From positions 30,779 to 94,778 of the forward strand of contig JARGOP010000012.1 of assembly GCA_029233965.1 (NCBI GenBank): DNA of 64,000 nucleotides, read 5' to 3'. Shown in pieces: positions 29,418 through 46,353 of the stretch. This DNA is from Verrucomicrobiales bacterium. Its GTDB lineage: Bacteria > Verrucomicrobiota > Verrucomicrobiia > Verrucomicrobiales > DEV007. The notes beneath the pieces were generated by a model. It made no database searches. It saw nothing but the letters and a program-made list of their open reading frames with translations, and was not told the DNA's origin. The translations under genes and the position numbers were made by a program. Positions within the stretch are counted from its first letter, which is position 1. Every line of letters starts with the position of its first letter.

Positions 29418-32400
29418 TCACTCCCGCTCCGGGAGCGTAGCGAGATACTTTTTCCGAAGTTCCTCGATTTTGGCCTGCTGCCCAGCGAGGGCGGCTTCCT
29501 GGCGTTTTCTCTCCGCCTCGGCTTCGGCCAGTTCTTTTGCCGCAGCGGCTTCGAGTTGGGCCCGCTCTTCGATCACCTTCGGAGTCTCCCGGGCGACCTT
29601 ACTGGCCTGATCGACCGTTGCTTTGGTGGCATCGGCGGCGGTGTAGGTGGTGGCGAGGAAACCCTCGATATCCTGGAGGCGTTTTCGCAGAGATTCCACC
29701 TCCTCGGTGATTTCTTCGCGGGACTTGTACGCAAGAGCTTCGGCAGCGACGGTCTCGATGACCTGCTCCTCTTCGATTTCTTCGGGCATGTCGCCGACCT
29801 GAACGAGGGCTTCGGGATCCTCTTCGTTGAAGAGCGCGGCAAGCTCGGTGGGAGGGGTATCAGATTGTGCCAGCCCGGCATCGACCTTGAGTTCGGCGAT
29901 GGCGCGATTCGCAACGAGCTGAAGTGCCCGCTCAAGGACCGTGCTCGACTTCTCTTTGAGTTGCTGGTTGCCGTCATTCACCGCCTTCTTTGCCACGGCG
30001 AGCGTCTGCTCGGCCTCGGCCCGGGCTTTCCTTGCTTCGCTGACTTCGGTCTTCGCTTCCACTTCGTCTTCCTTCATACCTTCGAGGTCGATTTCCATGT
30101 CATCGAGTTCCTCGGTCTCAAGCTTCGCGGTGAGGTTGATAGCGGCGGCCTGCCACTTCTTGACAAGAAACTGACTGTCTTTCAGCTCGGCTTTTGCGAT
30201 TTCGATGGACTTCTTCGTCTCCGCTTCTTTCTTCACGATGGCATCGACCCTTCCCTGGGCGCCTTCCTTTTCCCTGGTGGCGGCAGCAAGGGCGTCCTCC
30301 GCGGCCTTGAGAGTTCCCTGCGTCGCCGCAAGCTTGGCCTTAGCACCGTTGAGCTCCGCTTTCGCGGCGACCAATGCTTCGGCTCCCTTCTTCTCTGCGG
30401 CCTGGGCATTGGCGAGGTTGGTCTGCAGCCCGGCTATTTTTGCGCTTGCGTCTGCAAAGGCCTTCTTCGCGGCATCGAGTCCGCCTTTGGCATCGTTGCG
30501 AAGCTTCTCGGCTTCCTGATAGGCTTTTGTCCGGGCGGCGAGGGTGGCGGCAGCTTTGTTTTTCCGGTCCTGAACGGCAGCGAGAGCATCGCGGAGCGGT
30601 TTGAGGGCGGCACCGGCTTTCGCGAGAAGGTCACTTTTCGTTTTTTGATCCGCGGTCTGCTGCTGAATCGTGGAGTTGAGTGAGGCAAGCCTGGCGGTCT
30701 GCTGGTTGACGGCGTCCGTAGCTTTTTTGCTGCCAGTTTCGGCAGTGGCGAGATTTGCTCTGGCCTGATCGAACTCCGCAGTCGCCTGGCGCTCCTTTAC
30801 ACTGGCGCTGGCCTGGGCGTCGACCAGCTCCATCGGAGGAATCTTTCCATCTTTGGAAGCGGCAACCAGAGCCGCGTCGGCTTTCGCTCTTTCGACGGTC
30901 GCACTTTTCAAAATGGCTTCGGCGTTGGCGACCGCTTTCCTGCCCGGATCAACCTGAGCTGTGAATTTGGCGACTGCGGCTTTCGCGTCATTCAGTGCTT
31001 TCGCGACCTGATCCCGTTCCGCCGTCGTTTTCGCAAGCGCTGCATCGGCTGCCTTTTTTGCATTTTCCGCACTGACGCGGGCGGCCGCGAGTTGATCGAC
31101 CTGTTTCTGCTTTTCGGGATCGAGGGCCGGCTTTGAAGCCTCCTCTCTGGCTGCATTGAAAGCCGCAGCGACTGTCGCAAAGTTCTGGTCCCGGGTTTTG
31201 AAATTCGCCTCGGCCTTGGTTGCGGCCCCCTGCGTTGTTTTGACGAGGGCATTCGCGGCATTGAGGGCATCGCCTGCGGCCTTCGTCTTCGCCTGGAGGT
31301 CTGTGAGTGCCTTCTGCGTTTGATCGAGCCGGGGGGTGAGTGCCTTCACCGCACCGTCGAATTTGGCGAACTCTGCCTTTTGAGCATCGCGTTCCCTGGT
31401 TGCTGCCGCGATTTTCTGATCGACCGCAGTGAGCGCGTTACGCGCGTCAGCGAGCTCCTTGGAAACAGTTTTGATGCCCGCTTCCAGTTTTGGCAGCTCC
31501 CCTGTGAGTTCCCTGATGCGTTTTTCAGAGTAGGCAAGCTGCTCTTCGATCGTAGGGGGATTTGGCTCAATGGTGGCGAGCTCAGCTCCGTTTTCGACGT
31601 CCCAGACCTTGATCGTTCCGTGCCAGTCGCCGGTGAAGACTCGCTTGTTGTCGTGGCTGAAGGCAACGCTGAGGACGATGTCGTCAGAAGCGGTGATAGA
31701 CTTGAGTTCCTTTCCGTCTGCCTGCCAAATTTTGACTTTCTTGTCGCGGCCGACTGAGGCGATTTTTCCACCGGGGGAGAAAGTCACGGCGAGAGCGCCT
31801 CCGGGGTGGGCGGCCCACTTTTTGACTTCCTTACCCTCGTTCATTTCCCAAAGGATGATTTGACCGTCTTCACTGCAGGAGGCGAGAAGGTTGCCGTCAG
31901 AACGCCAGGCCACATCGGTCACCGCGGCAGTGTGGCCCTTGAGGGTGTAAAATTCATACCCCGTTGCCGATTCCCAGACATAAAGCCCGCCGTTGCGGCC
32001 GCCCGTTGCGAAGATAACGCCGTCGGGGCTGTAGGCGGCGGTCAAAAGCCAGTCCGGATGCTTTTTGATGCTGCTGGTCTCCTCACCGGCAACAGTGTCC
32101 CAGATTTTGATGTTCCGCTTGGGGCCGCCGAGGATGGCGCTTTTCAAGTCAGGGGAGACATCAGCACCGAGGACGATGTCATACTCCTTGCCGACTTCGA
32201 TGATACGCTCCCCGGTTTTAATGTCCCACGCGACTACGTTACCGGATTTTCCGGCCCGTCCGCCGCCGCAGGAGAGGTATGCACCATTCGGGCTGAACGA
32301 GAGTGTCTGCGGGAAACCTTCGGGGTAGGGGAGGACTCCAAGAAGATCGTAGTCTTCCGAATGGAAAAGAAGAACCTGTTTCTGACCGGCAACGGCAACG

Positions 32401-32939
32401 ATCGGAGCCCAGGGGCTATGTGCCATCGCGGGAACGGCATTGGGCCGCTCGGTGAGGACTTCAGGTTCGAGGATGAGGTGCTCGGGCATCGCCGGGGGAC
32501 CTTCCGGTTTGCCGGTTGAAGTGATGGAGTTGAGATCAATTTTCGGCTTGTCTGACTTTCGGGCCTTACTGCTGGAAGTTTCGAGAAGACCTCCGGCGAT
32601 CCAGTCGGAAAGAATTTTGAGTTCCTTTTCGTCCGCCGGAGTTCCTTTTGGCGGCATAAACGGCTCTTCGGTATGAGCGGAGAGGGTGAAGAGTCGACTG
32701 GATCCCGGATCCTCCGAAGTCACAACGTCTCCACCGGAACCTCCGTTCATCGTTGCTGCGTAGGTGGAAAGATCGAGCCCCCCCTTTGCCTCGTCGGCGT
32801 TGTGGCAGTTCACGCACTTGTTTTCGAGGATGGGGAGGACGTGATCAGCGTAGGTGACCTTGGTCTTCTCATCGGCAGTCAGTGCCGGAATGGCAGCCGA
32901 AGCCGCCAAAATCATGAGGGGAGCAATGATTCTCTTCAT
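29418..32939 (-). CDS. Exported c-type-cytochrome-motif (PSCyt1-like) / WD40 beta-propeller / long coiled-coil protein (1173 aa)
   Basis: Signal peptide MKRIIAPLMILAASAAIPALTA. CVNCH at 32802..32816 sits in a LPILENKCVNCHNADEAKGGLDLS context. There are 6-7 WD repeats (VVAWDIKTGE, IKIWDTVAGE, LYVWESATGY, IILWEMNEGK, VKIWQADGKE, IKVWDVENGA). About 700 aa of Cys-free, Ala/Lys/Glu/Gln/Thr-rich coiled coil follows. Confidence 0.85.
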   Translation of the reverse strand: MKRIIAPLMILAASAAIPALTADEKTKVTYADHVLPILENKCVNCHNADEAKGGLDLSTYAATMNGGSGGDVVTSEDPGSSRLFTLSAHTEEPFMPPKGTPADEKELKILSDWIAGGLLETSSSKARKSDKPKIDLNSITSTGKPEGPPAMPEHLILEPEVLTERPNAVPAMAHSPWAPIVAVAGQKQVLLFHSEDYDLLGVLPYPEGFPQTLSFSPNGAYLSCGGGRAGKSGNVVAWDIKTGERIIEVGKEYDIVLGADVSPDLKSAILGGPKRNIKIWDTVAGEETSSIKKHPDWLLTAAYSPDGVIFATGGRNGGLYVWESATGYEFYTLKGHTAAVTDVAWRSDGNLLASCSEDGQIILWEMNEGKEVKKWAAHPGGALAVTFSPGGKIASVGRDKKVKIWQADGKELKSITASDDIVLSVAFSHDNKRVFTGDWHGTIKVWDVENGAELATIEPNPPTIEEQLAYSEKRIRELTGELPKLEAGIKTVSKELADARNALTAVDQKIAAATRERDAQKAEFAKFDGAVKALTPRLDQTQKALTDLQAKTKAAGDALNAANALVKTTQGAATKAEANFKTRDQNFATVAAAFNAAREEASKPALDPEKQKQVDQLAAARVSAENAKKAADAALAKTTAERDQVAKALNDAKAAVAKFTAQVDPGRKAVANAEAILKSATVERAKADAALVAASKDGKIPPMELVDAQASASVKERQATAEFDQARANLATAETGSKKATDAVNQQTARLASLNSTIQQQTADQKTKSDLLAKAGAALKPLRDALAAVQDRKNKAAATLAARTKAYQEAEKLRNDAKGGLDAAKKAFADASAKIAGLQTNLANAQAAEKKGAEALVAAKAELNGAKAKLAATQGTLKAAEDALAAATREKEGAQGRVDAIVKKEAETKKSIEIAKAELKDSQFLVKKWQAAAINLTAKLETEELDDMEIDLEGMKEDEVEAKTEVSEARKARAEAEQTLAVAKKAVNDGNQQLKEKSSTVLERALQLVANRAIAELKVDAGLAQSDTPPTELAALFNEEDPEALVQVGDMPEEIEEEQVIETVAAEALAYKSREEITEEVESLRKRLQDIEGFLATTYTAADATKATVDQASKVARETPKVIEERAQLEAAAAKELAEAEAERKRQEAALAGQQAKIEELRKKYLATLPERE

Positions 32940-33187
32940 AGTAGTCCGTTGAACGTTACGATCCGAAATCGAGGGTAGGAGATTTTCTCTTGTTGTGAAA
33001 ACTGATAAATATACGATATTTTGAGCGTGTGTCGCGGGTTATTGGATGGCGATATCGCGCGGTTCAGGGGGCCCTTTCGGGTCGTTTGAATCCGCCGCAG
33101 TTCCGCCTCTACGCAAAGACGCCTCTTGTTGCAAAAGGGTTTCAGCTATTAATTCGACAACGAACTATCATCCCACCATCTATTATC

Positions 33188-34522
33188 ATGAAAGGCTGCT
33201 CAAGCTTCTTTAATTCCGGTCTTGCTAACCGTCGCGAGTTCCTTCAAGTCGGCTTCGCTGGCGGCGTAGGACTCTCACTCCCTGAACTTCTCAAGGTCGA
33301 GGCAAATGCGCAGGCCAAGTTTTATGAGTCGAAGGAGGGCGCAGCTAAGTCCCTGATTCACATTTACCTGCCGGGTGGAATGGCGCATCAGGAGACCTGG
33401 GATCCGAAGCCGTATGCGCCGTCGGAATATCGTGGTCCCTACAAGGCGATCAACACCAATGTCGATGGACTCCAGTTCAGTGAGAACTTCAAGAATCTCG
33501 CGAAGGTGGCCGACAAAATGACAGTGATTCGCTCGATGACTCATGGTGAGGCGGCTCACGAGCGTGGAACTCACAACATGTTCACCGGTTACAAGCCGAG
33601 TCCGGCCATTGACTTCCCGAGCTTTGGATCAGTGATTTCGCATGAATTTGGTCCCCGGAAGAATCTTCCGCCCTACGTCTGTGTTCCCAATACACCCAAC
33701 GAATTCGCCGGAACCGGATACCTCAGCTCAATGTATGGTCCTTTCTCCGTTGGAAGTGATCCGGCAGACCTGAAGAATTTCAAAGTCCGTGACCTCACGC
33801 TTCCAAGCGGGGTTGACGGGGCTCGATTCGAGCGTCGTCGCACGCTTCTGGAAGCGGTGGACAGCCATTTCCGCAACATGGAACAGGCGGATCAGATTGA
33901 CGCGATGGATTCTTTCTATCAGAAGGCCTACAGCCTGATCGGTTCCGCCGAAGCCCGTGACGCTTTCGATCTCACGAAAGAAGATGAGAAGGTGAAGGAG
34001 CGCTATGGTAAAAATCAGGCCGGTATGCGGATGCTTCTTTCCCGTCGTCTCGTGGAATCCGGTGTTCGTCTCGTCACGATGACCTATGGCAGCTGGGATC
34101 ACCATGACAAGATTAAAGATAACATCGGCCGTCAGGTCCCTGATTTCGATAAGGCACTGGCGACACTGCTCACCGATCTCGATGAGCGCGGTCTCCTTGA
34201 CTCCACACTCGTGATGGTTTCTTCCGAGTTCGGTCGTACCCCGAAGATCAATAAGACTGACGGTCGTGATCACTGGCCTCGCGTCTTCTCTACGATGCTT
34301 GCCGGTGGCGGTATCAAACGTGGCTTTGTCTACGGATCCTCTGATTCCCTGGCTTCCGAGCCTGATACCAACCCGGTCGACGTTGAATCATTCGCGAAGA
34401 CGGTCTACCACCAGTTGGGAATCAATGCGGATAAAGAGCTGATTGCCCCTGGTCCGCGTCCGATGGAAATCGTTGATGGTGGCTCCGTGATCGAGGAGCT
34501 GATCGCCAAATCTTCGGTGTAA
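33188..34522 (+). CDS. DUF1501-family protein (sulfatase/phosphatase-like fold, TAT-exported)
   Basis: TAT leader NRREFLQVGFAGGVGLSL directly after ATG 33188. Conserved MTYGSWDHH and TDGRDHWP motifs. The ORF track's 33029 start adds an implausible 53-aa extension. Confidence 0.9.
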   Translation: MKGCSSFFNSGLANRREFLQVGFAGGVGLSLPELLKVEANAQAKFYESKEGAAKSLIHIYLPGGMAHQETWDPKPYAPSEYRGPYKAINTNVDGLQFSENFKNLAKVADKMTVIRSMTHGEAAHERGTHNMFTGYKPSPAIDFPSFGSVISHEFGPRKNLPPYVCVPNTPNEFAGTGYLSSMYGPFSVGSDPADLKNFKVRDLTLPSGVDGARFERRRTLLEAVDSHFRNMEQADQIDAMDSFYQKAYSLIGSAEARDAFDLTKEDEKVKERYGKNQAGMRMLLSRRLVESGVRLVTMTYGSWDHHDKIKDNIGRQVPDFDKALATLLTDLDERGLLDSTLVMVSSEFGRTPKINKTDGRDHWPRVFSTMLAGGGIKRGFVYGSSDSLASEPDTNPVDVESFAKTVYHQLGINADKELIAPGPRPMEIVDGGSVIEELIAKSSV

Positions 34523-34549
34523 GGATCTGAATTTTTCATCCCGAAACTT

Positions 34550-37048
34550 ATGAAACGTATTCTGTCTCATCAGAGTGCGGCCTGTTTCGCTCGATTCGCG
34601 AAAGCATCAGCAGTCTTCGGACTGCTGGTTGCTCTTTTCGCAGGATCGGCGCTTGAGGCTGCCTCGCCTGACCTTCAAAACACGACTCCCCGCGGAGCAC
34701 AGCGGGGTGTGGAAACGAGGGTGACTTTTTTCGGTAATCGACTGGAGGACGCCGAGGAGATCATTTTCCATTATCCCGGTATCACTGCGAAGGATCTTCA
34801 GGTGATTGACAGTCGAAAGGTAGAAGCCACACTCGTCATCGCACCCGACTGTCGTCTGGGCGAGCACCACGTTCGCGTCCGGTGTAAGAGCGGCATGAGT
34901 TACGCACGTAATTTCTGGGTTTCTCAGTTCCCGAATGTCGATGAAGTGGAGCCGAACGATGACTTTGATGCGCCTCAAAGAATCGATCTCAATGTGACGA
35001 TTGAAGCAGAGGCGAAGCCGGAGGAGACGGATTACTACCTCGTTTCAATGAAGAAGGGGCAGCGCCTCTCGGTTGAGGTGGAAGGGCTTCGGATCAACAA
35101 TATTGTGAACAACATCGCGATCGATCCCTTTGTATCCATTCTGAACAAGAATCGCTTTGAGATTGCTTCAGCCGACGGATCGGCGCTTTTGAAGCAGGAG
35201 TCAGTCCTTTCCGTCCTGATTCCCGAAGATGGAGATTACATCGTCGAAGTCCGCGATTCGGCGTATCAGGGGCGGGGTCGCTACCGCGCTCACATCGGGA
35301 CTTTTCCTCGCCCTGCCGCTATCTATCCTGCCGGTGGAAAGCCGGGTGAAGAGGTTGAGTTTACTCTTATCGGGGACGTGACGGGGGAATACAAAACCAA
35401 GGCTAAGTTGCCGCTGACCACCGAGGAGGGGACTTTTGGAGTTCTCGGGCAGCACGAAGGCCTCTATCCGCCCTCTCCGAACCTCGTTCGGGTGAGTGAT
35501 TACGACAATGTGCTTGAAAGCGGAGAGAATGACGACATGCGCAGCCCGGATCTTGCATCCGTCGGTGTCCTCCCACTCGCGTTCAACGGGATATTGGAGA
35601 AAGAGGGCGACATTGACTACTTCAAGTTCACCGGCAAGAGGGGGCAAAATTACCGCTTCCGGGTTTACGCGAGCGCGATTGGTTCGCCCGTTGATCCTGT
35701 CCTCAATCTTTACGACAGCCAGTTTAAGTCATTGGGTGGCTCGGATGACGCTAATGGAACGAAGGACAGTCAGGTTGATTTTAAGCCGACCGAGGACGGT
35801 GATTATTTTGTGCGGGTGACCGACATGCTAAAGCGTGGTGGTACCGATTTTGTCTACCGAATCGAGTCAGAGGCCTTTACTCCTGCAATTGAAGTAACCA
35901 TGCCTGAGATGCTGCGGCGCAACCTTCAGTATCGAAAGCAGTTCGATATTCCGCGGGGAGGCTATTACTCCATGGTCGTCAATACGACGCGAAGGAATAT
36001 GTCGGGAGATTTGGTTTTCGACCTGCCTTCGCTTCCTCCGGGAGTGACCTGGGAGTCGGGTACCATTCCGAGGACAGTGAGCCAGTTTCCAATTTTGCTG
36101 AAAGCGGCTCCTGATGCTCCGATCGGGGGAGGGATGTACACCTTGAAGGTGAAAAACACTGACGAAAAATCTCCGGTGGAAGGCACTTTCACGCAGGCCC
36201 TGGATCTCGTCCGGGGACCGCAGAACGGTGTCGAGTACTATACTCGCTATCATGACAAGCTTCCTGTTTCTGTTGTCGAGGAAATTCCCTACAGCATCAC
36301 GATTGACCAGCCGAAGTCACCTCTTGTGCGTGACGGGACGAAGAAGTTGAAGATCCGCGCGCACCGGAAGGACGGCTATGACAAAAAGATCACCGTGAGG
36401 CTGCTCTGGAAGCCGCCGGGAATCACAAGTCCTTCGACAATGACCTTCGGCGAAAAGGATACGGAGCTGGAGTATGAGCTGAATGCGAATGCCTCGGCTG
36501 AAATCAATACGTGGAATATCAACGTCGTTGCTGAATCAGACGCCGGAAAAGGGGTCATGATGACGGCTTCCCCGTTCGTGGAGCTCTCTGTCGAGGAACC
36601 TTTCGTCGGGATGAAACTCTCCATGGCAACTGCGAAGCAGGGCGAAGCAATTGATATGCTCGCCGAAGTCGAGAATCTTCGCGAGTTCGAAGGTCAGGCA
36701 GATGTACAGCTCTTTGCAGTTCCGGCTCATGCCACCGTTCCGGTTGTGAAGATCGACAAATCGACGTCCGATCTCAAGTTGCCGATCCAAACTACGGATA
36801 AAACACCGGTGGGTCAGCACAAGAATCTCTTTTGCACCGTAACTCTTATGCACAATGGCGAACCTGTGGTTCATCGGGTCGGGATGGGCGGTGTCTTCCG
36901 CGTTGATCCGAAGCCGAAAGAGCCGGTTGCTGCGAAGCCGGTTGCCGAGGAGAAGAAAGTGGTGGCAAAAAATGAGCCTGCCGAGAAGCCGCTTTCCCGC
37001 CTTGAGCAACTCCGTCTCGAAGCGCAGAAAGAAGCTGCCGCTCAGTGA
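34550..37048 (+). CDS. Exported protein with two pre-peptidase C-terminal (PPC)-like domains (832 aa)
   Basis: Hydrophobic leader. Two PPC-like modules: VEPNDDFDAPQRI...DYYLVSMKKGQRLSVEV...DPFVSILN...DGDYIVEVRD and SGENDDMRSPDL...DIDYFKFTGKRGQNYRFRV...DPVLNLYD...DGDYFVRVTD. Lys/Pro/Glu-rich tail. Starts 27 bp after DUF1501. Confidence 0.75.
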   Translation: MKRILSHQSAACFARFAKASAVFGLLVALFAGSALEAASPDLQNTTPRGAQRGVETRVTFFGNRLEDAEEIIFHYPGITAKDLQVIDSRKVEATLVIAPDCRLGEHHVRVRCKSGMSYARNFWVSQFPNVDEVEPNDDFDAPQRIDLNVTIEAEAKPEETDYYLVSMKKGQRLSVEVEGLRINNIVNNIAIDPFVSILNKNRFEIASADGSALLKQESVLSVLIPEDGDYIVEVRDSAYQGRGRYRAHIGTFPRPAAIYPAGGKPGEEVEFTLIGDVTGEYKTKAKLPLTTEEGTFGVLGQHEGLYPPSPNLVRVSDYDNVLESGENDDMRSPDLASVGVLPLAFNGILEKEGDIDYFKFTGKRGQNYRFRVYASAIGSPVDPVLNLYDSQFKSLGGSDDANGTKDSQVDFKPTEDGDYFVRVTDMLKRGGTDFVYRIESEAFTPAIEVTMPEMLRRNLQYRKQFDIPRGGYYSMVVNTTRRNMSGDLVFDLPSLPPGVTWESGTIPRTVSQFPILLKAAPDAPIGGGMYTLKVKNTDEKSPVEGTFTQALDLVRGPQNGVEYYTRYHDKLPVSVVEEIPYSITIDQPKSPLVRDGTKKLKIRAHRKDGYDKKITVRLLWKPPGITSPSTMTFGEKDTELEYELNANASAEINTWNINVVAESDAGKGVMMTASPFVELSVEEPFVGMKLSMATAKQGEAIDMLAEVENLREFEGQADVQLFAVPAHATVPVVKIDKSTSDLKLPIQTTDKTPVGQHKNLFCTVTLMHNGEPVVHRVGMGGVFRVDPKPKEPVAAKPVAEEKKVVAKNEPAEKPLSRLEQLRLEAQKEAAAQ

Positions 37049-37090
37049 TTAAGTAATTTTCGTCCTCCCCCTCACTCACATTCAACAACC

Positions 37091-39922
37091 ATGAGAAACA
37101 TCGCTCGCTTATCGCTTTCCCTTGCTCTGTTTTCGGCTGTTTCCTTAAACGCTGAAGAGAACGCTGCCGGAAAAATTGATTTCGCCAGGGACATCCAGTC
37201 GATTCTGGAGTTCAACTGCGTTCAATGTCACCATGAGCCGAAGGTGAAGGGTGGGCTTCGATTTGACGAATCCGCGCTGTTTTTCAAAGGGGGGGATGGA
37301 GGTCCCGCCCTTGTCAAAGGTGATCCGGATAACTCCCTCATGATCGAGATGGTCGAGTTGCCTCATGACGACATTGATTCAATGCCGCCTGAAGGCCGAA
37401 AGCTCTATGATCACGAGATTGCAAAGTTGCGTCAGTGGATCAAGGAGGGCGCTCACTGGCCTGAAGAGTTGGTGCTAGTTGCGAAGAACGAAGATGATTT
37501 CAAGGGTGCCGAGCCTCTTGCGGACAATGGTAAGAAGTTGGTAAAGCTCGAAGCTTTTCCGAAGGACATTAATCTTGAGAAAAAGCGGGACAGCCAGTCG
37601 GTGGTCGTCATGGCGACTTACGATGATGACACCACGGTTGATGTCACGAGGAATGCGACCTTCAACTTTGAAGATCCTTCGCTGATTGATCTAAAGACGA
37701 GGAACCATTTTATCCCGGTCAAAGATGGATCGACCAAGCTGACGGTGAAGGTGGCGGAACACTCGGTTGAGTTGCCGGTCACGGTGACGGAAGCGGCCGT
37801 GGATCGTCCGATCAGTTTCAATCTCGATGTGATGCCGGTCTTCATGCGTGAGGGCTGCAATACGGGCGCCTGCCACGGCTCCGCCCGCGGACAGGATGGA
37901 TTCATGCTTTCCCTCTTCGGTTATGATCCGGACGGGGACCACTTCAGACTCACCCGTGAGTTGGCCGGATACCGAATTAACCTGGCGATTCCCGAGGAAT
38001 CACTCCTTGTCGAAAAATCCATCGAAGCGGTTCCGCACACAGGTGGAAAGCTGATGGAGAAGGGCGGGCATGGCTATAATACGATGGTGGAGTGGATTGC
38101 TGATGGTGCCAGGAACGATGAGAAGGCGGATCTGCCAACGGTGGTTGGGCTTGAGGTATATCCTCCAAAGCTTGTTCTCGAGGGATCGGGTGCTGAGCAG
38201 CAGCTTACCGTTCGTGCGCTCTACTCGGACGGGCACGATCGTGATGTGACTCACCTCGCTGCGTTTGTAACGAACAACGAGCCTACCGCCGCAGTAGACG
38301 AGTGGGGTAAGATCACCGCCGGCAAGCGGGGTGAAGCTTTCATCATGGCCCGCTATGAAACCCAGACGGTGGGTATTCAAACGATCGTGATTCCCGAGGG
38401 GCTGGATTACACCCGCCCTGAGATGACGGAGAACAATTACATTGATGGTTTTGTTCACGATAAACTCCACAAGCTCCGGATGGTGCCCTCCGGGGAGTGC
38501 TCCGATGATGAATTTCTGCGTCGGGTTTCACTCGACATCACGGGCCAGCTTCCGACAGTTGAAGACTACCACGCATTCGTGGGGGATACGGACCCTGAGA
38601 AGCGTGCCAAGTTAGTGGACAAACTTCTTGAACGAAAAGAATTCACCGAAATGTGGGTGATGAAGTGGTCTGAGCTGCTTCAGATTCGTTCCAACAACAA
38701 CATTGCTCTCGGAATTTCCTACAAATCCGCGCTCCTCTACAACGGCTGGCTGCGCGATCAGATTGCAGCGAATACGCCTCTGAACGAGTGGGTCATCGAC
38801 TTGATTGGATCTCAGGGCGGCACCTTTGCCAATCCTGCGACGAACTTCTACCAGGTCGAGCGTGATTCTCTGAAGCTCTCCGAGAACGTGGCTCAGGTTT
38901 TCATGGGAATGCGTCTCCAGTGCGCTCAGTGCCATAACCACCCGTTTGACCGCTGGACGATGGATGATTATTACGGCTGGGCTGCGTTTTTCTCGCAAAT
39001 TGGTCGCAAAGAGGGTGTCGATCAGCGTGAGCAAATCATCTACAACCGCGGGAGTGGCGAAGTGAAGCACCTCATTGGGGGGCGCAACATGGAGCCGAAG
39101 TTCCTTGGTGGCGACATTCCTGATGTGAAAGGCAAAGATCGCCGGGTCGTCATGGCGGAGTGGCTTGCCTCGCCCGATAATCCTTACTTTGGCACCAACA
39201 TTGTGAACATCGTTTGGTCACACTTTTTCGGAGTTGGGATTATCGACCCGGTTGATGATGTCCGCGTCAGCAATCCGGCTTCGAATCCTGAACTTCTCGG
39301 GGCCCTCGCGACCCGCTTCGAAGGGGAATACGGCTACGACTTCAAGCAACTCGTTCGCGATATTTGTAACTCGGCGACATACCAGCGAACCACTCAGGCG
39401 ACACCATCGAATAAGGATGATATGAACAATTTCGCCCGGGCCCGGGTCCGCCGCCAGCGCGCCGAGGTCATGCTGGATACCATCACTCAGGTCACGGAGA
39501 CGAAGAATAAGTTCAAAGGCCTTCCTCTCGGCTCCCGTGCTGTTCAAATCGCGGACGGACAGACGACCGATTATTTCCTCACAACCTTCGGTCGCGCAAC
39601 ACGCGAGACGGTTTGTTCGTGTGAAGTGAAAATGGACCCGAGTCTTTCCCAGGCCCTTCACTTGTTGAACGGGCCAACCGTGACAACAAAGATTGAGCAG
39701 GGGAGTGTCGTGAAGACCCTTCTCGCTGAGGGCAGGACTCCTGCCGAAATTATCGAAAACGTCTACATCCGGGCGTTTACGCGAAAGCCGACCACTGAGG
39801 AAATGAAGCAGTTGATGGCACAAGTGAATGCGGTGGGAGAAGACAAAGCTCAGGTGGAACTCGTTCTCAACGATGTTTTCTGGGCCGTTTTGAACTCGAA
39901 GGAGTTCATGTTTAATCATTGA
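37091..39922 (+). CDS. PSCyt-motif / Big_2 / DUF1549 (PSCyt2) / DUF1553 (PSD1) protein (943 aa)
   Basis: Signal peptide. CVQCHH at 37217..37231. Two Ig-like Big_2-type modules. DUF1549-type RRVSLDITGQLPT. DUF1553-type CAQCHNHPFDRWTMDDYY at 38921 onward. Starts 42 bp after the preceding gene. Confidence 0.9.
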   Translation: MRNIARLSLSLALFSAVSLNAEENAAGKIDFARDIQSILEFNCVQCHHEPKVKGGLRFDESALFFKGGDGGPALVKGDPDNSLMIEMVELPHDDIDSMPPEGRKLYDHEIAKLRQWIKEGAHWPEELVLVAKNEDDFKGAEPLADNGKKLVKLEAFPKDINLEKKRDSQSVVVMATYDDDTTVDVTRNATFNFEDPSLIDLKTRNHFIPVKDGSTKLTVKVAEHSVELPVTVTEAAVDRPISFNLDVMPVFMREGCNTGACHGSARGQDGFMLSLFGYDPDGDHFRLTRELAGYRINLAIPEESLLVEKSIEAVPHTGGKLMEKGGHGYNTMVEWIADGARNDEKADLPTVVGLEVYPPKLVLEGSGAEQQLTVRALYSDGHDRDVTHLAAFVTNNEPTAAVDEWGKITAGKRGEAFIMARYETQTVGIQTIVIPEGLDYTRPEMTENNYIDGFVHDKLHKLRMVPSGECSDDEFLRRVSLDITGQLPTVEDYHAFVGDTDPEKRAKLVDKLLERKEFTEMWVMKWSELLQIRSNNNIALGISYKSALLYNGWLRDQIAANTPLNEWVIDLIGSQGGTFANPATNFYQVERDSLKLSENVAQVFMGMRLQCAQCHNHPFDRWTMDDYYGWAAFFSQIGRKEGVDQREQIIYNRGSGEVKHLIGGRNMEPKFLGGDIPDVKGKDRRVVMAEWLASPDNPYFGTNIVNIVWSHFFGVGIIDPVDDVRVSNPASNPELLGALATRFEGEYGYDFKQLVRDICNSATYQRTTQATPSNKDDMNNFARARVRRQRAEVMLDTITQVTETKNKFKGLPLGSRAVQIADGQTTDYFLTTFGRATRETVCSCEVKMDPSLSQALHLLNGPTVTTKIEQGSVVKTLLAEGRTPAEIIENVYIRAFTRKPTTEEMKQLMAQVNAVGEDKAQVELVLNDVFWAVLNSKEFMFNH

Positions 39923-39956
39923 TACCTCCGGATCATTCTGAGATTATCTTCTCCTC

Positions 39957-39988
39957 AAAAAAGCGGCTCATGGCGAGCCGCTTTTTTT
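39957..39988 (+). terminator. Rho-independent terminator
   Basis: AAAAAAGCGGCTC (39957..39969) pairs with GAGCCGCTTTTTT (39976..39988) across the loop ATGGC. It lies 35 nt after the stop of the DUF1553 gene. Confidence 0.75.
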
Positions 39989-40095
39989 GTGCTTTGGCAG
40001 AACTGGACGTTTCCTTGCATATTCTTTACAACTTCAGGCTCATGCATTCGTCGTTCTCTGCGTTATAAAAGCAATGCAACAACCAGGCTGCCTTC

Positions 40096-43000
40096 ATGAA
40101 AACCCCATTACCGCTTCGCTCGATTCGTCACGTCGTCCTCTCTGGAGTACTGATTCTGATTTCCTTCTCGATTATGAAGACAACGGCCGAAGAAGGGTTC
40201 GATTTCCTTGAGCGATTTGCCCTCGCTGAAGACCGTGGAGCGGTCCTCAATGAGTTGGTTCCCGGTACGGAGGAGTTTTACTACTATTCCGCGTTGCACG
40301 CGCAACAGGAGAAGCGGTTCGATGATGTCGTGGCGCTTCTTGAGCCCTGGATTAAACGGCATGGGGAGACTCCGGGAGTCACGGAGATCAGGCATCGTCA
40401 GGCCCTTCTCGGCTATGAAGTGGATCCTGAAGCCTCGCTGAAATATCTCATCGAGGAACTGGGAGTTCGGTTCGATCACGAACAGGAAAAGCTCGATACG
40501 AAGCCGGATTTCCCGACGAAACTCGACGTAGCCCGGATCGAATGGGATGCCTTTCTGCAGCAGTCAATTCAGCGCAACAGCCTTTCGAAAATCAAAACAT
40601 CAGGCTTTGATCGATTGATTCGGGAGGAAATTCCACTCAATCCAGCGCAGCGTCGCGAACTTCTCAGTCGCCTCGTATTTCCTGATTTTGAAAGGCTCGT
40701 CGGACTGATCGCGGCTGACCTGAGAACTCCGGAGAGCCGGGGCTTTGGCGAGTTCCCGATTCACCTTCAGCTCACGCTTGCACAGCTCGATGAATTGGTC
40801 GGCCTGATGCCTGAACTTGCCAATCATCCCAAATTCGTGGATGCAAGGCTCTTGCGCCTCCGACCGAATGGAGATGTTCTCCTTGAGCACTCCGCGGAGG
40901 AGCGTGCTGCCTATCTCGACCGGCTTTGGGGCTATGTAAGCCAGTTGGCCCCGGCCTTTACTTCGCTCAAGGTTTCCGTTCTGTATCAGCGTCTCCGCGA
41001 GGCTCGTGCCAATGGCGAAGTTCCGCTCGATGAATTTTTGACTTACCTGCGACTGCCGAGGCCTGCGTCCTACATGGCTCCGCGTTATCTGCAGGAGAGA
41101 AATCAGCAGATTGCGATGGCCGATCTCAATGCTGATTTTGCGTCCACAACCGGGTTCCCTCCTGTCGGAAACGATGAAGCCCTCGTTCGGCACTTTCTGG
41201 AAGCTGTGTTTGTCGACGACGAATCCTATCAGCGTTTCAGTCCCTACCTGCGCGAGGACTACCTGAAGCAGGTCTTTGCCGAGACGAAATTGATTCGCGG
41301 GATTGGAGATGCGGCCGACTATTTTTCAATGCTGACGCCCGCGCAGGTTCAGTCGATCCGGGAGCGGGTGGAGATCACATTTCGCCAGGAGAATCCCGAT
41401 GAGTTTACCGCCCGGGATGAGGTAACTTTGAAAGTCGATCTCAAGAACGTCAAAGACCTGATCGTGAAGGTCTACGAAATCAATACGCACAACTACTACC
41501 TCGATCAGCAACGTGAGATCAGCACGGATTTGAATCTGGACGGTCTCGTTGCGAATCAAGAAAAACGGTATCAGTTTGAGCAGGCTTCGCTGATCCGCCA
41601 TGAGGAAAGTTTCACCTTCGATTCCATGCGAGGAAAGCGGGGGGTCTGGGTTGTCGAAATGATCGGAAACGGGATCAGCTCCCGTGCGCTGGTGAGAAAA
41701 GGGAAACTCCAGTATCTTTCCAACACGACACCGGGAGGTGAAATGGTTCAGGTTGTCTCGGAAGACAACGAATGGATCAAGGAAGCATCAATCTGGTTCG
41801 GTGGACGTGTGTATAAGGCTGATGAAGAGGGATCGATACTCCTGCCTTTCTCGAAAGAAGGACGCTCCTCGGTCATCCTGAATGACGGTGAAATCTCAAG
41901 CTTTGCGAGCATAGAGCTTCCACGTGAAACTTACTCTCTCGATGCCGGCTTTTTTCTGGAGCAGGAGTCATTGATTGCGGGCAGAGAGTCAACGGTCATT
42001 GTTAATTCTCAACTGACTCTAAACGGGGAACCGGTCTCGGTGACACTGCTGGAGAATCCAACGCTGCGCATACAGACGACGGACGCTGATGGCGTCGATT
42101 CCATTGTCGAAGTGGAGTCTTTTGACCTGTTCGATGATCGCGAGTCTGTCCACACTTTCCGTGTCCCGGCACGACTTCAAAATATTGCGGTATCGCTTGA
42201 AGGAACACTTCCTCTCGTCAGTGAGGCGGGTGAGTCTCCGGTTCTGACAAGTGAGCGTAATTTTCCGGTGAACGGCATCGATACCGAAAGTCAGGTTTCG
42301 GACCTCTTTCTCAGTCGTTTTGAAGACGGCTATCGGATCGAAGTCCTCGGAAAATCCGGAGAGCCGATTGCTGACCGTCCGGTCACGCTCGTGCTGGCTC
42401 ATGAGGATTTCATGCAGCCCCTTTCAGTGGTGTTGAAATCCGATCCCGCTGGTGTTGTTCGACTGGGAGAACTCGAAGGAATTGCTTTTCTGGAAGCCCA
42501 GTCGCAGGGAACCCGGCAGCGTAGCTGGGCGATCCAGAACGGTCGCTATTCTCACTCAGGTTCGATCCATGCGGTCGCCGGGGAGACGGTGATGGTACCA
42601 TTATCCCGGCCGCCTGCGGTATTGTCGCGCAGCGATTTCGCCCTCTTTGAAGTTCGTTCGGGCATTCATGTGACTGACTTTTTCGATAGAGCCACTCTCT
42701 CCGATGCGGCGGTGGAGATTTCCGACCTCAAGGCGGGAGACTATCGCGTCATCCTTCGCCGTGAGGGCAGGGTGATCGATCTTTACGTAACCGCTTCCGA
42801 AACGCAGATCTCCGGATATGCCCTTTCAAAGAGTCGTCACCTGCAACTGTCAGATCGTTCCCCCCTCCACCTGGGTTCAATCGAGCGGGAAGGTGACAAG
42901 TTATTCATCAAAGTTTCGAATGCCGATGAATTTACAAGGGTTCATCTCGTTGCGACCCGTTTTTTACCGGAGTTTGACCCCTACAAGAGTCTCAAGCGGG

Positions 43001-46000
43001 AAATTGAAATGCCTCTTTTCCGCATCACGCGGGGAAGCAATCAGTCGCTTTATCTGTCAGGAAGAGACATCGGGGAGGAATATCGATACATCCTCGATCG
43101 GCGATCTCTGACACGGTATCCGGGGAACATGCTGGAACGGCCCGGATTGCTCCTCAATCCCTGGGAACTTAACGAAACGAGCACGGAGAGAGACGAAGCC
43201 GAGGCTGGTGATGCCTACAAAAAGGGCGCGGATATGAAAGCGGAGAGCCGTACGGCTCCGGGAACCGCGATGGACCGTGCTCCCGTGGAGGAGCCTTTCG
43301 TTGCGATTTCGCCGTCGCTTCAGTTTTTGAGCCAACCTTCGCTGGTTCTGAGCAATCTCGAGCCGGGTGAAGACGGGATCATCGAAGTGGATGGCTCCCT
43401 TCTCGATGGACGTCAGCACGTTCATGTCGTGGCGCTGAACGCCACGACTTCAACATCGCGGCAGTTCGTTGCCCCGGCTCCTGAAGAGGCCGTTCCATTT
43501 CGAGATCTCCGCCTCACTGAGTCCCTCGACAATAAGAAAAGTTTCACGCAGCAGCGAAAAGTGACCCTGCTTGAGACCGGGGAATCGCTCAGGATTGAGG
43601 ACCTCCGCTCCACGGAGATGGAGTTCTATGACACGATCGAAGAAGTCTATTCAGTGCTTTTTGCGATCAACCCCGATCTCAATTTCGCGAAGTTTGGATT
43701 CATCACGAACTGGAATGAGTTGGACGCCGGCAGAAAGCGGGAACTCTACTCGGACCATGCCTGCCATGAGCTGCATCTCTTTCTTGCGAAAAAGGATCCT
43801 GAGTTCTTCACGGAAATTGTGGTTCCTTATTTGAAGAACAAGAAGGACAAGACCTTCATGGATCTTTACCTGCTCGGGGCAAATCTTGAGTCGTTTCTCA
43901 AGCCGTGGGCATTCAGCCGCCTGAATGTGGTGGAGCAGATTTTACTGGGGCAGAGGCTGGGTGGGGCGTTGCAGAAATCGACTGCCGACCATGTCGTGAG
44001 CCTTCATGAATTGATTCCGTCCGACGTGGGGCAGGAGACTTTCTTTTTCAAACAGGCGCTTCGGGGACGGCGTGCCGGTAGCGGGAATGAACTGGTCCAG
44101 GCAATTCCGGGCGGTGGCGGGTTTGGTTTTGCCGATGGTTTTGGTGAAGTCGCCGCCAGTCCGGCCGCTGTGGCCCCGCCGCCACCGGAAGCACTGGCTA
44201 TCATAAGCAGCCGTGGAATGAGCGGCGGGGTGAACCAATTGGCCAATCTCCGCGAACGGGCCTTGAAAGAGCGTCTCTTCCGCCAAATCGAATCCACCAA
44301 AGAGTGGGCGGAGAACAATTACTACGAAATTCCAATCCAGCAGCAAATTGCGGAACTCGTTTCCGTGAACGGATTCTGGAAGGATTTTGCGAACTGGGAT
44401 GGGAACGGGAACTTCTATTCGCGTGAGTTCACTGCGGCAACGCAAAGTTTCACCGAGATGATGATGGCGCTCAGTATTCTCGATTTGCCGTTCACGGCCG
44501 AAGAGCACGAGATCAGGATCGATGATGTCGAGATGACATTCACCGCTAAGTCACCCGTGATTGTCTTTCACGAGGAAATCGAAGAAGCGGAGCGGACCGA
44601 AGAAGGTACGCCGATTCTTGTCAGTCAGAATTTCTATCGGGAAGATGATCGATTCCGGATCGTGGATGGAGAAAGGGAGGACAAATTCGTGAAAGATGAG
44701 TTTTTGACGGGAGTTGTCTACGGAAGTCAGATTGTCGTCACAAATCCGACTTCCTCGCATCATGTTCTGGATATGTTAGTGCAAATTCCGGAGGGAGCGA
44801 TTCCGGTTGCCGGCAGTGACTATACGAAGTCTTATCCTTTTGCGCTTTCCCCGTTTTCGACGGAGAGGTTGGAAGTCTCCTTCTACTTTCCCGGGGTATC
44901 CGGTGAGAGACTCTTCACTTCCTTTCCTGTCCAGGCGGCCAGGGATGAAAAGGTGATCGCAACGGGGAGCGACATGTCATTCAAGGTCGTGGATCGCCTT
45001 TCCCGGGTTGATGAGGCTTCATGGGATTACCTTTCGCAGGAAGGGACGGAAGAAGAGGTGCTTGATTTTCTAAGGAACGAGAACCTCCATCGAATCAATC
45101 TCAGTCGCATTGCCTGGAGAATGCGGGAGAATATTGATTTTTTCAGAAAGGTCACGGCGCTGATTGCGGAACGACATGCCTACGATGACACGCTCTGGAG
45201 CTACGGCTTGTATCACGGCGTCACTGAGGTCGCGCGGGAATATTTGAATCACCAGGGAAACTTTCTCTCCCAGTCGGGACTCTGGATTGACAGTGAACTG
45301 GTGAGTGTTGACCCGGTTGAGCGGCATTGGTATGAGCATCTCGAATATTCACCTCTTGTGAATGCAAGAGCCCATCGACTCGGGCGGGAACAGTCCATCT
45401 TGAATGACCGCTTCTTGAAGCAGTATCAGTCGCAACTGAAAGTCCTGAGCTACAAGCCGGAGCTTTCGCAGGAAGACAGGCTTGCGATCACCGGATACCT
45501 TTTTCTTCAGGATCGCCTTGAAGACGGGTTGGCCTGGCAGGAATCAATCGAACCCGGAGAGTTGGATTCGCGTCTTCAGTATGACTATCTCGCGGCCTAT
45601 GCTGCCTTCTACCGGGAAGACCTCGAGGCCGCCAAAGCAATCGCTGCGAAGTATGTGGACTATCCGGTTGTTCGCTGGGAGAACCGGTTTGCCGAAGTGG
45701 CACGACAGATTAAGGAAGTGTCAGGAGCGGAGGAAGGTGCCGGAGAGGAGGGCTCGATGGAACAACTTTCTTCAACTGATCCGTTTCTTGAGCTCACCGC
45801 AACGGGTCGTGAGGCAGCTCTGAACTTCCGGAATCTCGACGCTATCGAGGTAAACTATTATGAGATGGATCTTGAGTTCCTTTTTTCAAGTAAACCCTTT
45901 GTTTCCGGTGACAGTGGACAGTTTGCCTATATCAAGCCCAACCTGACTGAAGAGAAAAAGCTGCCTGAGCACGGGGGCGCGTTCACCTTTGAGATCCCGG

Positions 46001-46353
46001 TGGCCTTTGCGAGTAAGAACGTTCTCGTGGAAGTTGTCGGTGCCGGACAGAGGGAGATGATCGCGGTCTACTCGAATCAGCTCAATGTGCAAATGTCAGA
46101 ACGATACGGTCGTCTTGAGGTGAGTCATGACGAGAGGGAAGGTCCGGTATCGAAGGCCTACGTGAAAGTCTATGCGAGAATGAAGAATGGAGATGTTCGC
46201 TTTTTCAAGGATGGCTACACTGATCTTCGTGGTAAGTTCGACTATGTCAGTCTCAGCACAAATGAGTTGGATGAGGTTGAGAAATTCAGTCTCCTCGTCA
46301 TGAGTGAGGAGAACGGATCGCTTGTCACGGAGGTGAGTCCGCCACGCCGGTGA
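40096..46353 (+). CDS. Giant exported/membrane-anchored protein of unknown function (2085 aa)
   Basis: An uninterrupted 6.2-kb ORF. N-terminal hydrophobic segment VVLSGVLILISFSIM. A helical-repeat region of about 450 aa, then many beta-sandwich-like modules. A Gly/Ala/Pro linker at about 44.08-44.20 kb. No catalytic motif recognised. Confidence 0.8.
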   Translation: MKTPLPLRSIRHVVLSGVLILISFSIMKTTAEEGFDFLERFALAEDRGAVLNELVPGTEEFYYYSALHAQQEKRFDDVVALLEPWIKRHGETPGVTEIRHRQALLGYEVDPEASLKYLIEELGVRFDHEQEKLDTKPDFPTKLDVARIEWDAFLQQSIQRNSLSKIKTSGFDRLIREEIPLNPAQRRELLSRLVFPDFERLVGLIAADLRTPESRGFGEFPIHLQLTLAQLDELVGLMPELANHPKFVDARLLRLRPNGDVLLEHSAEERAAYLDRLWGYVSQLAPAFTSLKVSVLYQRLREARANGEVPLDEFLTYLRLPRPASYMAPRYLQERNQQIAMADLNADFASTTGFPPVGNDEALVRHFLEAVFVDDESYQRFSPYLREDYLKQVFAETKLIRGIGDAADYFSMLTPAQVQSIRERVEITFRQENPDEFTARDEVTLKVDLKNVKDLIVKVYEINTHNYYLDQQREISTDLNLDGLVANQEKRYQFEQASLIRHEESFTFDSMRGKRGVWVVEMIGNGISSRALVRKGKLQYLSNTTPGGEMVQVVSEDNEWIKEASIWFGGRVYKADEEGSILLPFSKEGRSSVILNDGEISSFASIELPRETYSLDAGFFLEQESLIAGRESTVIVNSQLTLNGEPVSVTLLENPTLRIQTTDADGVDSIVEVESFDLFDDRESVHTFRVPARLQNIAVSLEGTLPLVSEAGESPVLTSERNFPVNGIDTESQVSDLFLSRFEDGYRIEVLGKSGEPIADRPVTLVLAHEDFMQPLSVVLKSDPAGVVRLGELEGIAFLEAQSQGTRQRSWAIQNGRYSHSGSIHAVAGETVMVPLSRPPAVLSRSDFALFEVRSGIHVTDFFDRATLSDAAVEISDLKAGDYRVILRREGRVIDLYVTASETQISGYALSKSRHLQLSDRSPLHLGSIEREGDKLFIKVSNADEFTRVHLVATRFLPEFDPYKSLKREIEMPLFRITRGSNQSLYLSGRDIGEEYRYILDRRSLTRYPGNMLERPGLLLNPWELNETSTERDEAEAGDAYKKGADMKAESRTAPGTAMDRAPVEEPFVAISPSLQFLSQPSLVLSNLEPGEDGIIEVDGSLLDGRQHVHVVALNATTSTSRQFVAPAPEEAVPFRDLRLTESLDNKKSFTQQRKVTLLETGESLRIEDLRSTEMEFYDTIEEVYSVLFAINPDLNFAKFGFITNWNELDAGRKRELYSDHACHELHLFLAKKDPEFFTEIVVPYLKNKKDKTFMDLYLLGANLESFLKPWAFSRLNVVEQILLGQRLGGALQKSTADHVVSLHELIPSDVGQETFFFKQALRGRRAGSGNELVQAIPGGGGFGFADGFGEVAASPAAVAPPPPEALAIISSRGMSGGVNQLANLRERALKERLFRQIESTKEWAENNYYEIPIQQQIAELVSVNGFWKDFANWDGNGNFYSREFTAATQSFTEMMMALSILDLPFTAEEHEIRIDDVEMTFTAKSPVIVFHEEIEEAERTEEGTPILVSQNFYREDDRFRIVDGEREDKFVKDEFLTGVVYGSQIVVTNPTSSHHVLDMLVQIPEGAIPVAGSDYTKSYPFALSPFSTERLEVSFYFPGVSGERLFTSFPVQAARDEKVIATGSDMSFKVVDRLSRVDEASWDYLSQEGTEEEVLDFLRNENLHRINLSRIAWRMRENIDFFRKVTALIAERHAYDDTLWSYGLYHGVTEVAREYLNHQGNFLSQSGLWIDSELVSVDPVERHWYEHLEYSPLVNARAHRLGREQSILNDRFLKQYQSQLKVLSYKPELSQEDRLAITGYLFLQDRLEDGLAWQESIEPGELDSRLQYDYLAAYAAFYREDLEAAKAIAAKYVDYPVVRWENRFAEVARQIKEVSGAEEGAGEEGSMEQLSSTDPFLELTATGREAALNFRNLDAIEVNYYEMDLEFLFSSKPFVSGDSGQFAYIKPNLTEEKKLPEHGGAFTFEIPVAFASKNVLVEVVGAGQREMIAVYSNQLNVQMSERYGRLEVSHDEREGPVSKAYVKVYARMKNGDVRFFKDGYTDLRGKFDYVSLSTNELDEVEKFSLLVMSEENGSLVTEVSPPRR

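Follow-up and report, generated by a model that had tools for sequence, protein, structure and literature searches.

Do five neighbouring genes for large exported proteins in a verrucomicrobial chromosome encode a single envelope machine, or do some of them only lie beside it? The question is raised by a stretch of 64,000 nucleotides from a Verrucomicrobiales bacterium (GenBank assembly GCA_029233965.1, contig JARGOP010000012.1), here called the window, in which positions 29418-46353 are filled by such a block. The first gene, on the minus strand, encodes a protein with a WD40 propeller and a coiled-coil-like tail (29418..32939, 1173 amino acids [aa]). It is followed on the plus strand by genes for a DUF1501 protein (33188..34522, 444 aa), a double-PPC protein (34550..37048, 832 aa), a PSCyt/DUF1549/DUF1553 protein, hereafter the DUF1553 protein (37091..39922, 943 aa), and a giant (40096..46353, 2085 aa). 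A sequence-only reading of the window had taken all five for one candidate system. The comparative analysis described here leads to a narrower view, namely that the DUF1501, PPC, DUF1553 and WD40 genes (genes 1 to 4 of a module, in that order) are probably a co-inherited unit encoding a periplasmic enzyme complex, and that the giant is a separate neighbour.

The layout of the block is compact. The WD40 gene diverges from the DUF1501 gene across an intergenic region of 248 bp (32940..33187), and the next two spacers measure 27 bp (DUF1501/PPC) and 42 bp (PPC/DUF1553). An intrinsic-terminator-like hairpin with a perfect 13-bp stem, followed by a U run (39957..39987, plus strand), is the putative end of a DUF1501-PPC-DUF1553 unit, and the start codon of the giant lies 108 bp 3' of it. 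Judged by inspection of the translations, the DUF1501 protein has a twin-arginine (Tat) leader and the other four have hydrophobic Sec-type leaders. The reading frames, spacers, leaders and terminator thus lie where they had been placed at first, and profile annotation (Pfam and NCBIfam) agrees with the domains then named: PSCyt1, WD40 and coiled-coil tail; DUF1501; two PPC stretches; and PSCyt1 with DUF1549 and DUF1553.

Linkage of the genes across loci

The linkage of these genes was followed with the PPC protein as anchor, since its 10-kb flanks span the whole block. Loci were drawn from species-representative genomes (45) and from metagenomes (80), and 123 PPC-anchored loci made up the linkage set. 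The five window proteins were compared with them by tblastn, and the counts take in only loci long enough to assess. Close loci, in which the PPC protein is at least 57% identical to that of the window, belong to Verrucomicrobiales; distant loci, with 28-49% identity, are of Planctomycetota type and include one Planctomycetota and one Phycisphaerae metagenome-assembled genome.

Of 108 assessable loci, 105 have the DUF1501 gene immediately 5' of the PPC gene (53/55 close, 52/53 distant), and the DUF1553 gene follows the PPC gene directly in 82 of 88 (43/43 close, 39/45 distant, where 39 is a script count of 38 plus locus L095, missed through a 12-bp overlap). The WD40 gene was found in 56 of 60 (35/36 close, 21/24 distant), and its placement differs between the two groups: it is divergent and upstream in 35/35 close loci and on the same strand downstream in 21/21 distant ones. 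That the four orthologue groups stay linked under two arrangements points to functional coupling, not inherited synteny, and argues for the four genes being one functional unit. Orthologues of the PPC and WD40 proteins had been expected to accompany this specific DUF1501-DUF1553 pair, and they do. The same expectation fails for the giant: among loci with at least 9.5 kb of downstream sequence, 9 of 35 close ones and none of 28 distant ones have a full-length copy of it next to the module. The claim of a single system can therefore be kept for four of the five genes.

The module is also set apart by sequence divergence. Identity to the window protein is 54-98% for its DUF1501 orthologues and 25-34% for DUF1501 paralogues in the same loci, and no values fall between, so that the module DUF1501 proteins constitute a distinct orthologue group. 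They are the most conserved of the four: median identities in distant loci are 64% for DUF1501, 56% for DUF1553, 45% for WD40 and 40% for PPC, and in close loci 86% for DUF1501 and 65% for PPC.

DUF1501-PPC is the tightest core of the module, because some loci keep only this pair. Around it in loci L064 and L098 are unrelated genes, not diverged copies of the DUF1553 and WD40 genes. The PPC-protein family is large (1028 clusters at 50% identity, E<=1e-30), and of four very distant members inspected (30-32% identity), DUF1501-PPC-DUF1549/1553 is retained by two and DUF1501-PPC alone by the other two. Near two very distant DUF1501-PPC pairs other redox-type or paired genes were seen, which may be coincidental, namely a gene for a di-haem cytochrome c peroxidase (CCP_MauG; L128 3941-5299, minus strand) and a PSCyt3/PSD plus HXXSHH pair (L132 343-4111, plus strand).

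A further gene recurs in the distant loci. Divergently oriented, 5-180 bp upstream of DUF1501, is a gene for a Ser/Thr protein kinase in 19 of 42 assessable distant loci, in the slot that the WD40 gene occupies in Verrucomicrobiales. When the kinases of 24 distant loci were clustered, those with reading frames uncut by a contig end were ~850-930 aa long with a tetratricopeptide-repeat-like C-terminal half. Examples, all on the minus strand, are L098 5771-8443, L088 5927-8599 and L131 3569-5206, the last of 545 aa.

Relation to described clusters

In passages of a 2012 paper (Genome Biol Evol 4:1375; PMC3542564), Kamneva et al. describe 'the most complex gene clusters' around DUF1501 as sets of four genes. 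One gene is for DUF1501 itself, in some cases with a twin-arginine leader; the second product has a signal peptide and weak PPC domains; the third has the architecture PSCyt1/Big_2/PSCyt2/PSD1 and the fourth PSCyt1/WD40. The cluster was reported there as conserved in Planctomycetes and Verrucomicrobia, among other species of the Planctomycetes-Verrucomicrobia-Chlamydiae (PVC) group. The authors proposed membrane targeting and electron transport, with the function unknown, and tied the cluster to 'intracellular membranes', with a correlation of 0.852 with the compartmentalised cell plan. The window quartet has the same four architectures, the same pattern of Tat and signal-peptide leaders and the same clustering in both phyla. 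The genes at 29418-39922 are thus another orthologue of the four-gene cluster of Kamneva et al. and not a new candidate, so that of the description 'uncharacterised candidate system' the novelty falls away and the want of a defined function is what stays. In those passages of PMC3542564 there is no mention of two fixed gene orders, of a near-universal coiled-coil-like tail, of the LSRLEQLR tail or invariant CX4CH segment described below, or of DUF1501-PPC as the tightest pair.

The literature found on DUF1501, DUF1549, DUF1553 and PSCyt is one of descriptive genomics. In the literature searched there was no family member with an experimentally defined function, as the sequence-only reading had held, and later papers repeat that nothing is known of the function of the DUF1501/PSCyt families. 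These families are numerous: in Rhodopirellula baltica the DUF1549 and DUF1553 domains occur 41 times each, and generic pairs of DUF1501 and PSCyt/DUF1549/DUF1553 genes are found by the dozen in a single PVC genome. Such pairs, which also occur as paralogues in the loci examined here (e.g. L035 15492-20026), share with the module the two families, their adjacency and the combination of Tat and Sec leaders. The module differs from them in the PPC gene that always separates the two, in the WD40 cytochrome-type gene that usually accompanies them, in having no carbohydrate-binding module, and in its DUF1501 protein, to which theirs have only the low paralogue identity given above. Pairs of HXXSHH (DUF1552) with PSD/PSCyt3 are a parallel two-gene design built from different Pfam families, and the window proteins are not members of it.

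The four module proteins

The DUF1501 domain spans the whole protein (Pfam, E 4.7e-116). The N-terminus reads NRREFLQVGFAGG, and its RR pair is at least 90% conserved in the module alignment, in which two fragments are N-terminally truncated. A profile of the module DUF1501 proteins aligned by hhalign with a profile of the window sulfatases and their relatives gave a probability of 93.7% (E 1.9e-7, 88 columns), with SEFGR placed opposite the sulfatase metal-ligand motif SDNG. A PDB search with DUF1501 returned a sulfatase and LtaS in the same region, both sub-threshold, and Pfam gave no PF00884 match. The partial relationship seen in these profiles suggests that DUF1501 is akin to the sulfatase/alkaline-phosphatase core. 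Further afield, the protein matches HXXSHH (DUF1552) weakly, below the gathering score (E 1.1e-5).

A conserved formylglycine motif CxPxR was not present in the module DUF1501 alignment; the nearest sequence, C165-V-P-N-T, has no Arg and does not occur in paralogues. This excludes DUF1501 from the type I sulfatases. The polar residues conserved across the DUF1501 family are all kept in module orthologues (E70, D72, H124, D304, H306, E347, R350, D361 and H362, the first being D or E in paralogues), from which an active metal site is to be expected, and DUF1501 is the candidate catalytic subunit. That it might be a dead enzyme, because Ser is replaced by Ala in a GGPS motif, was considered and rejected, as the position varies in paralogues too and the polar residues are retained. 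The module proteins are set apart from paralogues by the motif LPGGxAxQE[TSG][WF]DP[KH]P.

The PPC protein has a Sec leader, two PPC stretches (Pfam, E 1.3e-13) and a beta-rich C-terminal half, where residues 450-790 drew no Pfam annotation. It ends (residues ~791-832, window 36920-37048) in a linker rich in Pro, Lys and Ala and then a helix, LSRLEQLR. This tail motif was found in 56/56 close and 50/61 distant PPC orthologues, a conservation that crosses phyla, and the helix may be a tethered docking element for the propeller or the coiled coil.

The WD40 protein begins with a Sec leader and a PSCyt1 domain at residues 42-99 (Pfam, E 1.3e-11), followed by the propeller at ~180-470. The PSCyt1 domain has CxxCH at 42-46 and Met95-Pro-Pro, and the Cys and His of CxxCH and Met95 are invariant in 84/84 aligned sequences (83 WD40 orthologues and the window). 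The tail of ~700 residues is rich in Ala, Lys and Glu and gives SMC-like coiled-coil matches (NCBIfam). Nearly every WD40 orthologue whose reading frame is uncut by a contig end has such a tail, rich in A, E, K, Q, L, R and T, of ~170-510 residues in distant loci and ~700 in Verrucomicrobiales. An earlier suggestion from tblastn coverage, that the coiled coil is specific to Verrucomicrobiales, was dropped, since the distant reading frames have tails of the same composition. The tail also accounts for the only match in a PADLOC scan of the five proteins, to LmuB (E 1.5e-4, driven by the coiled coil); the other four had none.

PSCyt1 scores above the Pfam gathering cut-off in both the WD40 and the DUF1553 proteins, and matches Cytochrome_CBB3 (cbb3-type) and PDB class I cytochromes c, 4rlr among them, weakly. 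With CxxCH and a distal Met, these would be putative class I c-type cytochrome domains.

The DUF1553 protein has a Sec leader and then, in order, PSCyt1, a Big_2 domain, a CX4CH segment, a second Big_2 domain and the helical region of PSCyt2 (DUF1549) and PSD1 (DUF1553). The Big_2-type Ig domains lie at 150-232 and 351-434 of an AlphaFold2 model (mean predicted local distance difference test, pLDDT, of 71) and have matching PDB hits. Eight residues are invariant in 89 sequences (88 orthologues and the window), namely C256, C261, H262, H316, C611, C614, H615 and H617. The last four form a CxxCH-x-H motif, which in the window is CAQCHNH (611-617). The most conserved stretch of the protein, residues 255-321 (window 37853-38053; GCNTGxCHG...GxDGFxLSLFGxDPxGD), was matched by no Pfam model, and the C-terminus matches PSD5 weakly, below the gathering score (Pfam). 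A Foldseek search with the model, in which the two Ig domains dominated the multi-domain query, returned Ig/Big_2 matches only, with no solved analogue of the helical DUF1549/DUF1553 fold in the top 50. PDB sequence and profile searches with DUF1501, DUF1553 and the giant likewise gave only Big_2 plus weak cytochrome c and sulfatase matches.

The PSCyt1 cysteines C43 and C46 of the DUF1553 protein are kept in ~80% of its alignment. In L041, L043, L089, L099, L100 and others the alignment begins at about residue 125-153, which leaves no space for an N-terminal PSCyt1. In such loci the WD40 protein is the sole PSCyt1 carrier.

A possible mechanism and its alternatives

From the co-inheritance, the invariant motifs and the partial fold relationship described above, we infer haem binding, complex formation, a direction of electron flow and a kind of substrate. 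DUF1501 would fold before export, in the cytoplasm, where it may also take up its metal, and then leave by Tat. Catalysis would be its task, at an Asp/His/Glu site on its sulfatase/alkaline-phosphatase-related core. The double-PPC protein would be its obligate partner, maybe a Ca-dependent binding or positioning subunit, whose flexible Pro/Lys-rich arm would end in the LSRLEQLR docking helix. The DUF1553 and WD40 proteins would be exported unfolded by Sec and given c-type haem in the periplasm; they would link catalysis to electron transfer and provide a long rod that carries the assembly. In cytochrome c maturation, haem is attached in the periplasm. The export routes fit this, Sec leaders being found on the CxxCH proteins and the Tat leader only on DUF1501.

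Such an arrangement would work like other periplasmic systems. In Sox-type systems, a Tat-exported catalytic subunit is combined in the periplasm with Sec-exported c-type cytochrome domains and beta-sandwich partners. The module may be compared by analogy only with Sox (SoxB hydrolase, SoxAX cytochromes, SoxYZ carrier), SorAB and the quinohaemoprotein dehydrogenases; the Pfam and NCBIfam scans, to which the search for membership was limited, gave no similarity to any of them.

Several observations weigh against this model. The alkaline-phosphatase superfamily is made up of hydrolases, transferases and mutases, and it is not obvious why an enzyme of this kind should need electron transfer. The hhalign match to sulfatases is limited to the C-terminal part of the core. 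A minority of loci (L064, L098, L128, L132) have DUF1501-PPC alone, so that the partners with cytochrome motifs are there either encoded elsewhere or dispensable, and many distant DUF1553 orthologues do not have the N-terminal PSCyt1. Finally, the model of the DUF1553 protein is poor, with pLDDT<50, exactly at the invariant Cys/His segments (255-321, 610-621 and 825-854), a pattern compatible with folding that depends on a cofactor but no proof of it.

The chief competitor is a non-redox hydrolase acting on sulfated or other glycans, with PSCyt, Big_2 and PPC as binding modules only, as has been proposed for generic DUF1501/PSCyt pairs. It can draw on the kinship of DUF1501 to sulfatases, on the three type I sulfatase genes in the window, and on the link of PSCyt genes to carbohydrate-binding modules and sulfatase neighbourhoods drawn by He et al. 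2017. The sulfatase gene beside the module (26633-28489, plus strand, 618 aa) has an orthologue in ~20 Verrucomicrobiales loci, placed upstream of the WD40 gene, whereas the distant loci have none, and Pfam finds no carbohydrate-binding module in any of the four proteins; together these argue against a variable glycan as substrate. The very high conservation of DUF1501 across phyla (54-72% identity), unusual for enzymes that track variable polysaccharides, points instead to an invariant substrate, cellular or universal. The invariant CxxCH/Met and CX4CH/His residues are hard to explain unless they are cofactor ligands, and DUF1501 does not have the CxPxR motif of the sulfatases. We regard a glycan hydrolase as unlikely.

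Less likely again, and distinctly improbable, is a structural assembly or scaffold of the PVC envelope built of rod, propeller and Ig/PPC domains, with DUF1501 as a non-catalytic fold. The tails of the WD40 orthologues and the Pro/Lys-rich arm and docking helix of the PPC protein would suit such a role, as would the correlation with the compartmentalised cell plan in PMC3542564. A scaffold is difficult to reconcile with DUF1501 being the most conserved of the four and keeping every family-conserved polar residue, and its Tat leader points to an active, cofactor-bearing enzyme. We retain the periplasmic enzyme complex as the best-supported reading.

The setting in which this enzyme complex would act may be glimpsed from its distribution. 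Akkermansia muciniphila and Kuenenia are anaerobes. The module is reported absent from the former, and DUF1501 from the latter (in the passages of PMC3542564 considered here). PSCyt genes are enriched in genomes from the epilimnion (surface layer), which may reflect oxygen availability according to the authors (He et al. 2017). Together these hint, weakly, at a link to oxygen.

The giant neighbour

The giant belongs to a family of its own. More than 1100 homologues were found; the matches listed, of ~2085-2215 residues, align over their whole length at 39-43% identity and reach into Planctomycetes, Aeoliella among them. One is named 'MG2 domain-containing protein' in UniRef; the window protein had no match in Pfam (even at E<10), NCBIfam, PADLOC or PDB sequence and profile searches. 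An AlphaFold2 model of residues 905-2085 (1181 residues; pLDDT 74, predicted template modelling score 0.50) shows beta-sandwich domains alternating with two large helical domains, so that the giant is not simply the beta-sandwich protein it had been called. The Foldseek top 50 for this model is dominated by C3b, C5, C4b and E. coli alpha-2-macroglobulin (E 4e-7 to 5e-4, best 3.9e-7). The alignments run to 640-930 columns with a probability of at least 0.9, but the TM-scores are only 0.08-0.16. Similar in this way to the alpha-2-macroglobulins and complement C3/C4/C5, the giant differs from them in having no Pfam match to the A2M family and no CxEQ; no thioester motif C[GLA]EQ occurs in it, and it has a single Cys. 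It is also ~400-500 residues longer than E. coli ECAM/YfhM (PDB 5a42, 1597 residues). With moderate confidence, and judged on the modelled C-terminal 57%, the giant may be taken for a remote, thioester-less relative of the alpha-2-macroglobulin/complement proteins.

Its position relative to the module is variable. Remnants were found in two further close loci, and 24 of the 35 have no giant. The remnants (L018 15008-15232, L056 15599-15823) are the last 77 codons only, lying between the DUF1553 and M20 peptidase genes, and are best read as deletion scars, the giant having been lost and the quartet left intact. In one Verrucomicrobiales genome (L047) the giant lies 7 kb from the DUF1553 gene and convergent to it, behind seven unrelated genes including frr, pyrH and fmt, and in Aeoliella there is no module gene within 10 kb of it. 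Because the neighbourhood is not conserved and a terminator lies between, the giant is placed outside the module; on this evidence of synteny it is a lineage-specific neighbour from a separate PVC family, predicted to be transcribed apart from the DUF1501-PPC-DUF1553 operon. That the giant is adjacent or scarred in 11 of the 35 Verrucomicrobiales loci does count against so clean a separation, and may reflect a loose functional tie to the module in this order. One envelope machine of all five genes, for which the adjacency of the genes, four of them on one strand, and the loci with a neighbouring or scarred giant can be cited (L053 and L066 being further examples), is very improbable and largely refuted by synteny, given the many loci with no giant, the displaced giants of L047 and Aeoliella, the strong terminator and the intact quartets of L018 and L056.

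A bolder proposal takes both parts together. The module would be an undescribed kind of periplasmic complex, an alkaline-phosphatase-fold enzyme joined to several c-type haems on a long coiled-coil rod with a tethered PPC protein, carrying out a housekeeping reaction on an invariant substrate, and the giant would found a thioester-less branch of alpha-2-macroglobulins widespread in PVC bacteria. We put this forward tentatively, as possible but on the whole doubtful.

Surroundings of the locus

The flanks are ordinary chromosome, with genes for three type I sulfatases (two of them, at 25098-26540 and 51098-52912, in addition to that beside the module), a GFO/IDH/MocA oxidoreductase, HtpG, an M20 peptidase, an FtsX/MacB-type permease and CarB. 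The closest relatives of the window are Verrucomicrobiales metagenome-assembled genomes. Within the divergent intergenic region, an alignment with six related Verrucomicrobiales loci shows two conserved blocks, the partly palindromic GGCGATATCGCGCGG at 33048-33062 and CTCTACGCAAAGACGCCTCTTG at 33107-33128; a search of the region against Rfam gave no match. The mechanically called DUF1501 reading frame extends upstream to a GTG at 33029. This start was ruled out by the ATG at 33188, which is conserved in relatives and was also chosen when genes were called independently on a near-identical 93.9-kb metagenome scaffold from ENA.

Implications

Few unexplained gene expansions in Planctomycetes and Verrucomicrobia are as large as those of DUF1501 and PSCyt/DUF1549/DUF1553. 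The module is the one strongly conserved version of this theme, with orthologues that are easily recognised and free of the noise of paralogues, which makes it the most suitable starting point for genetic and biochemical work on the superfamily as a whole. To the cluster already described, the present analysis adds its tightest pair, DUF1501-PPC, the residues to mutate and a candidate docking helix. Any definition of the 'system' should exclude the neighbouring giant.

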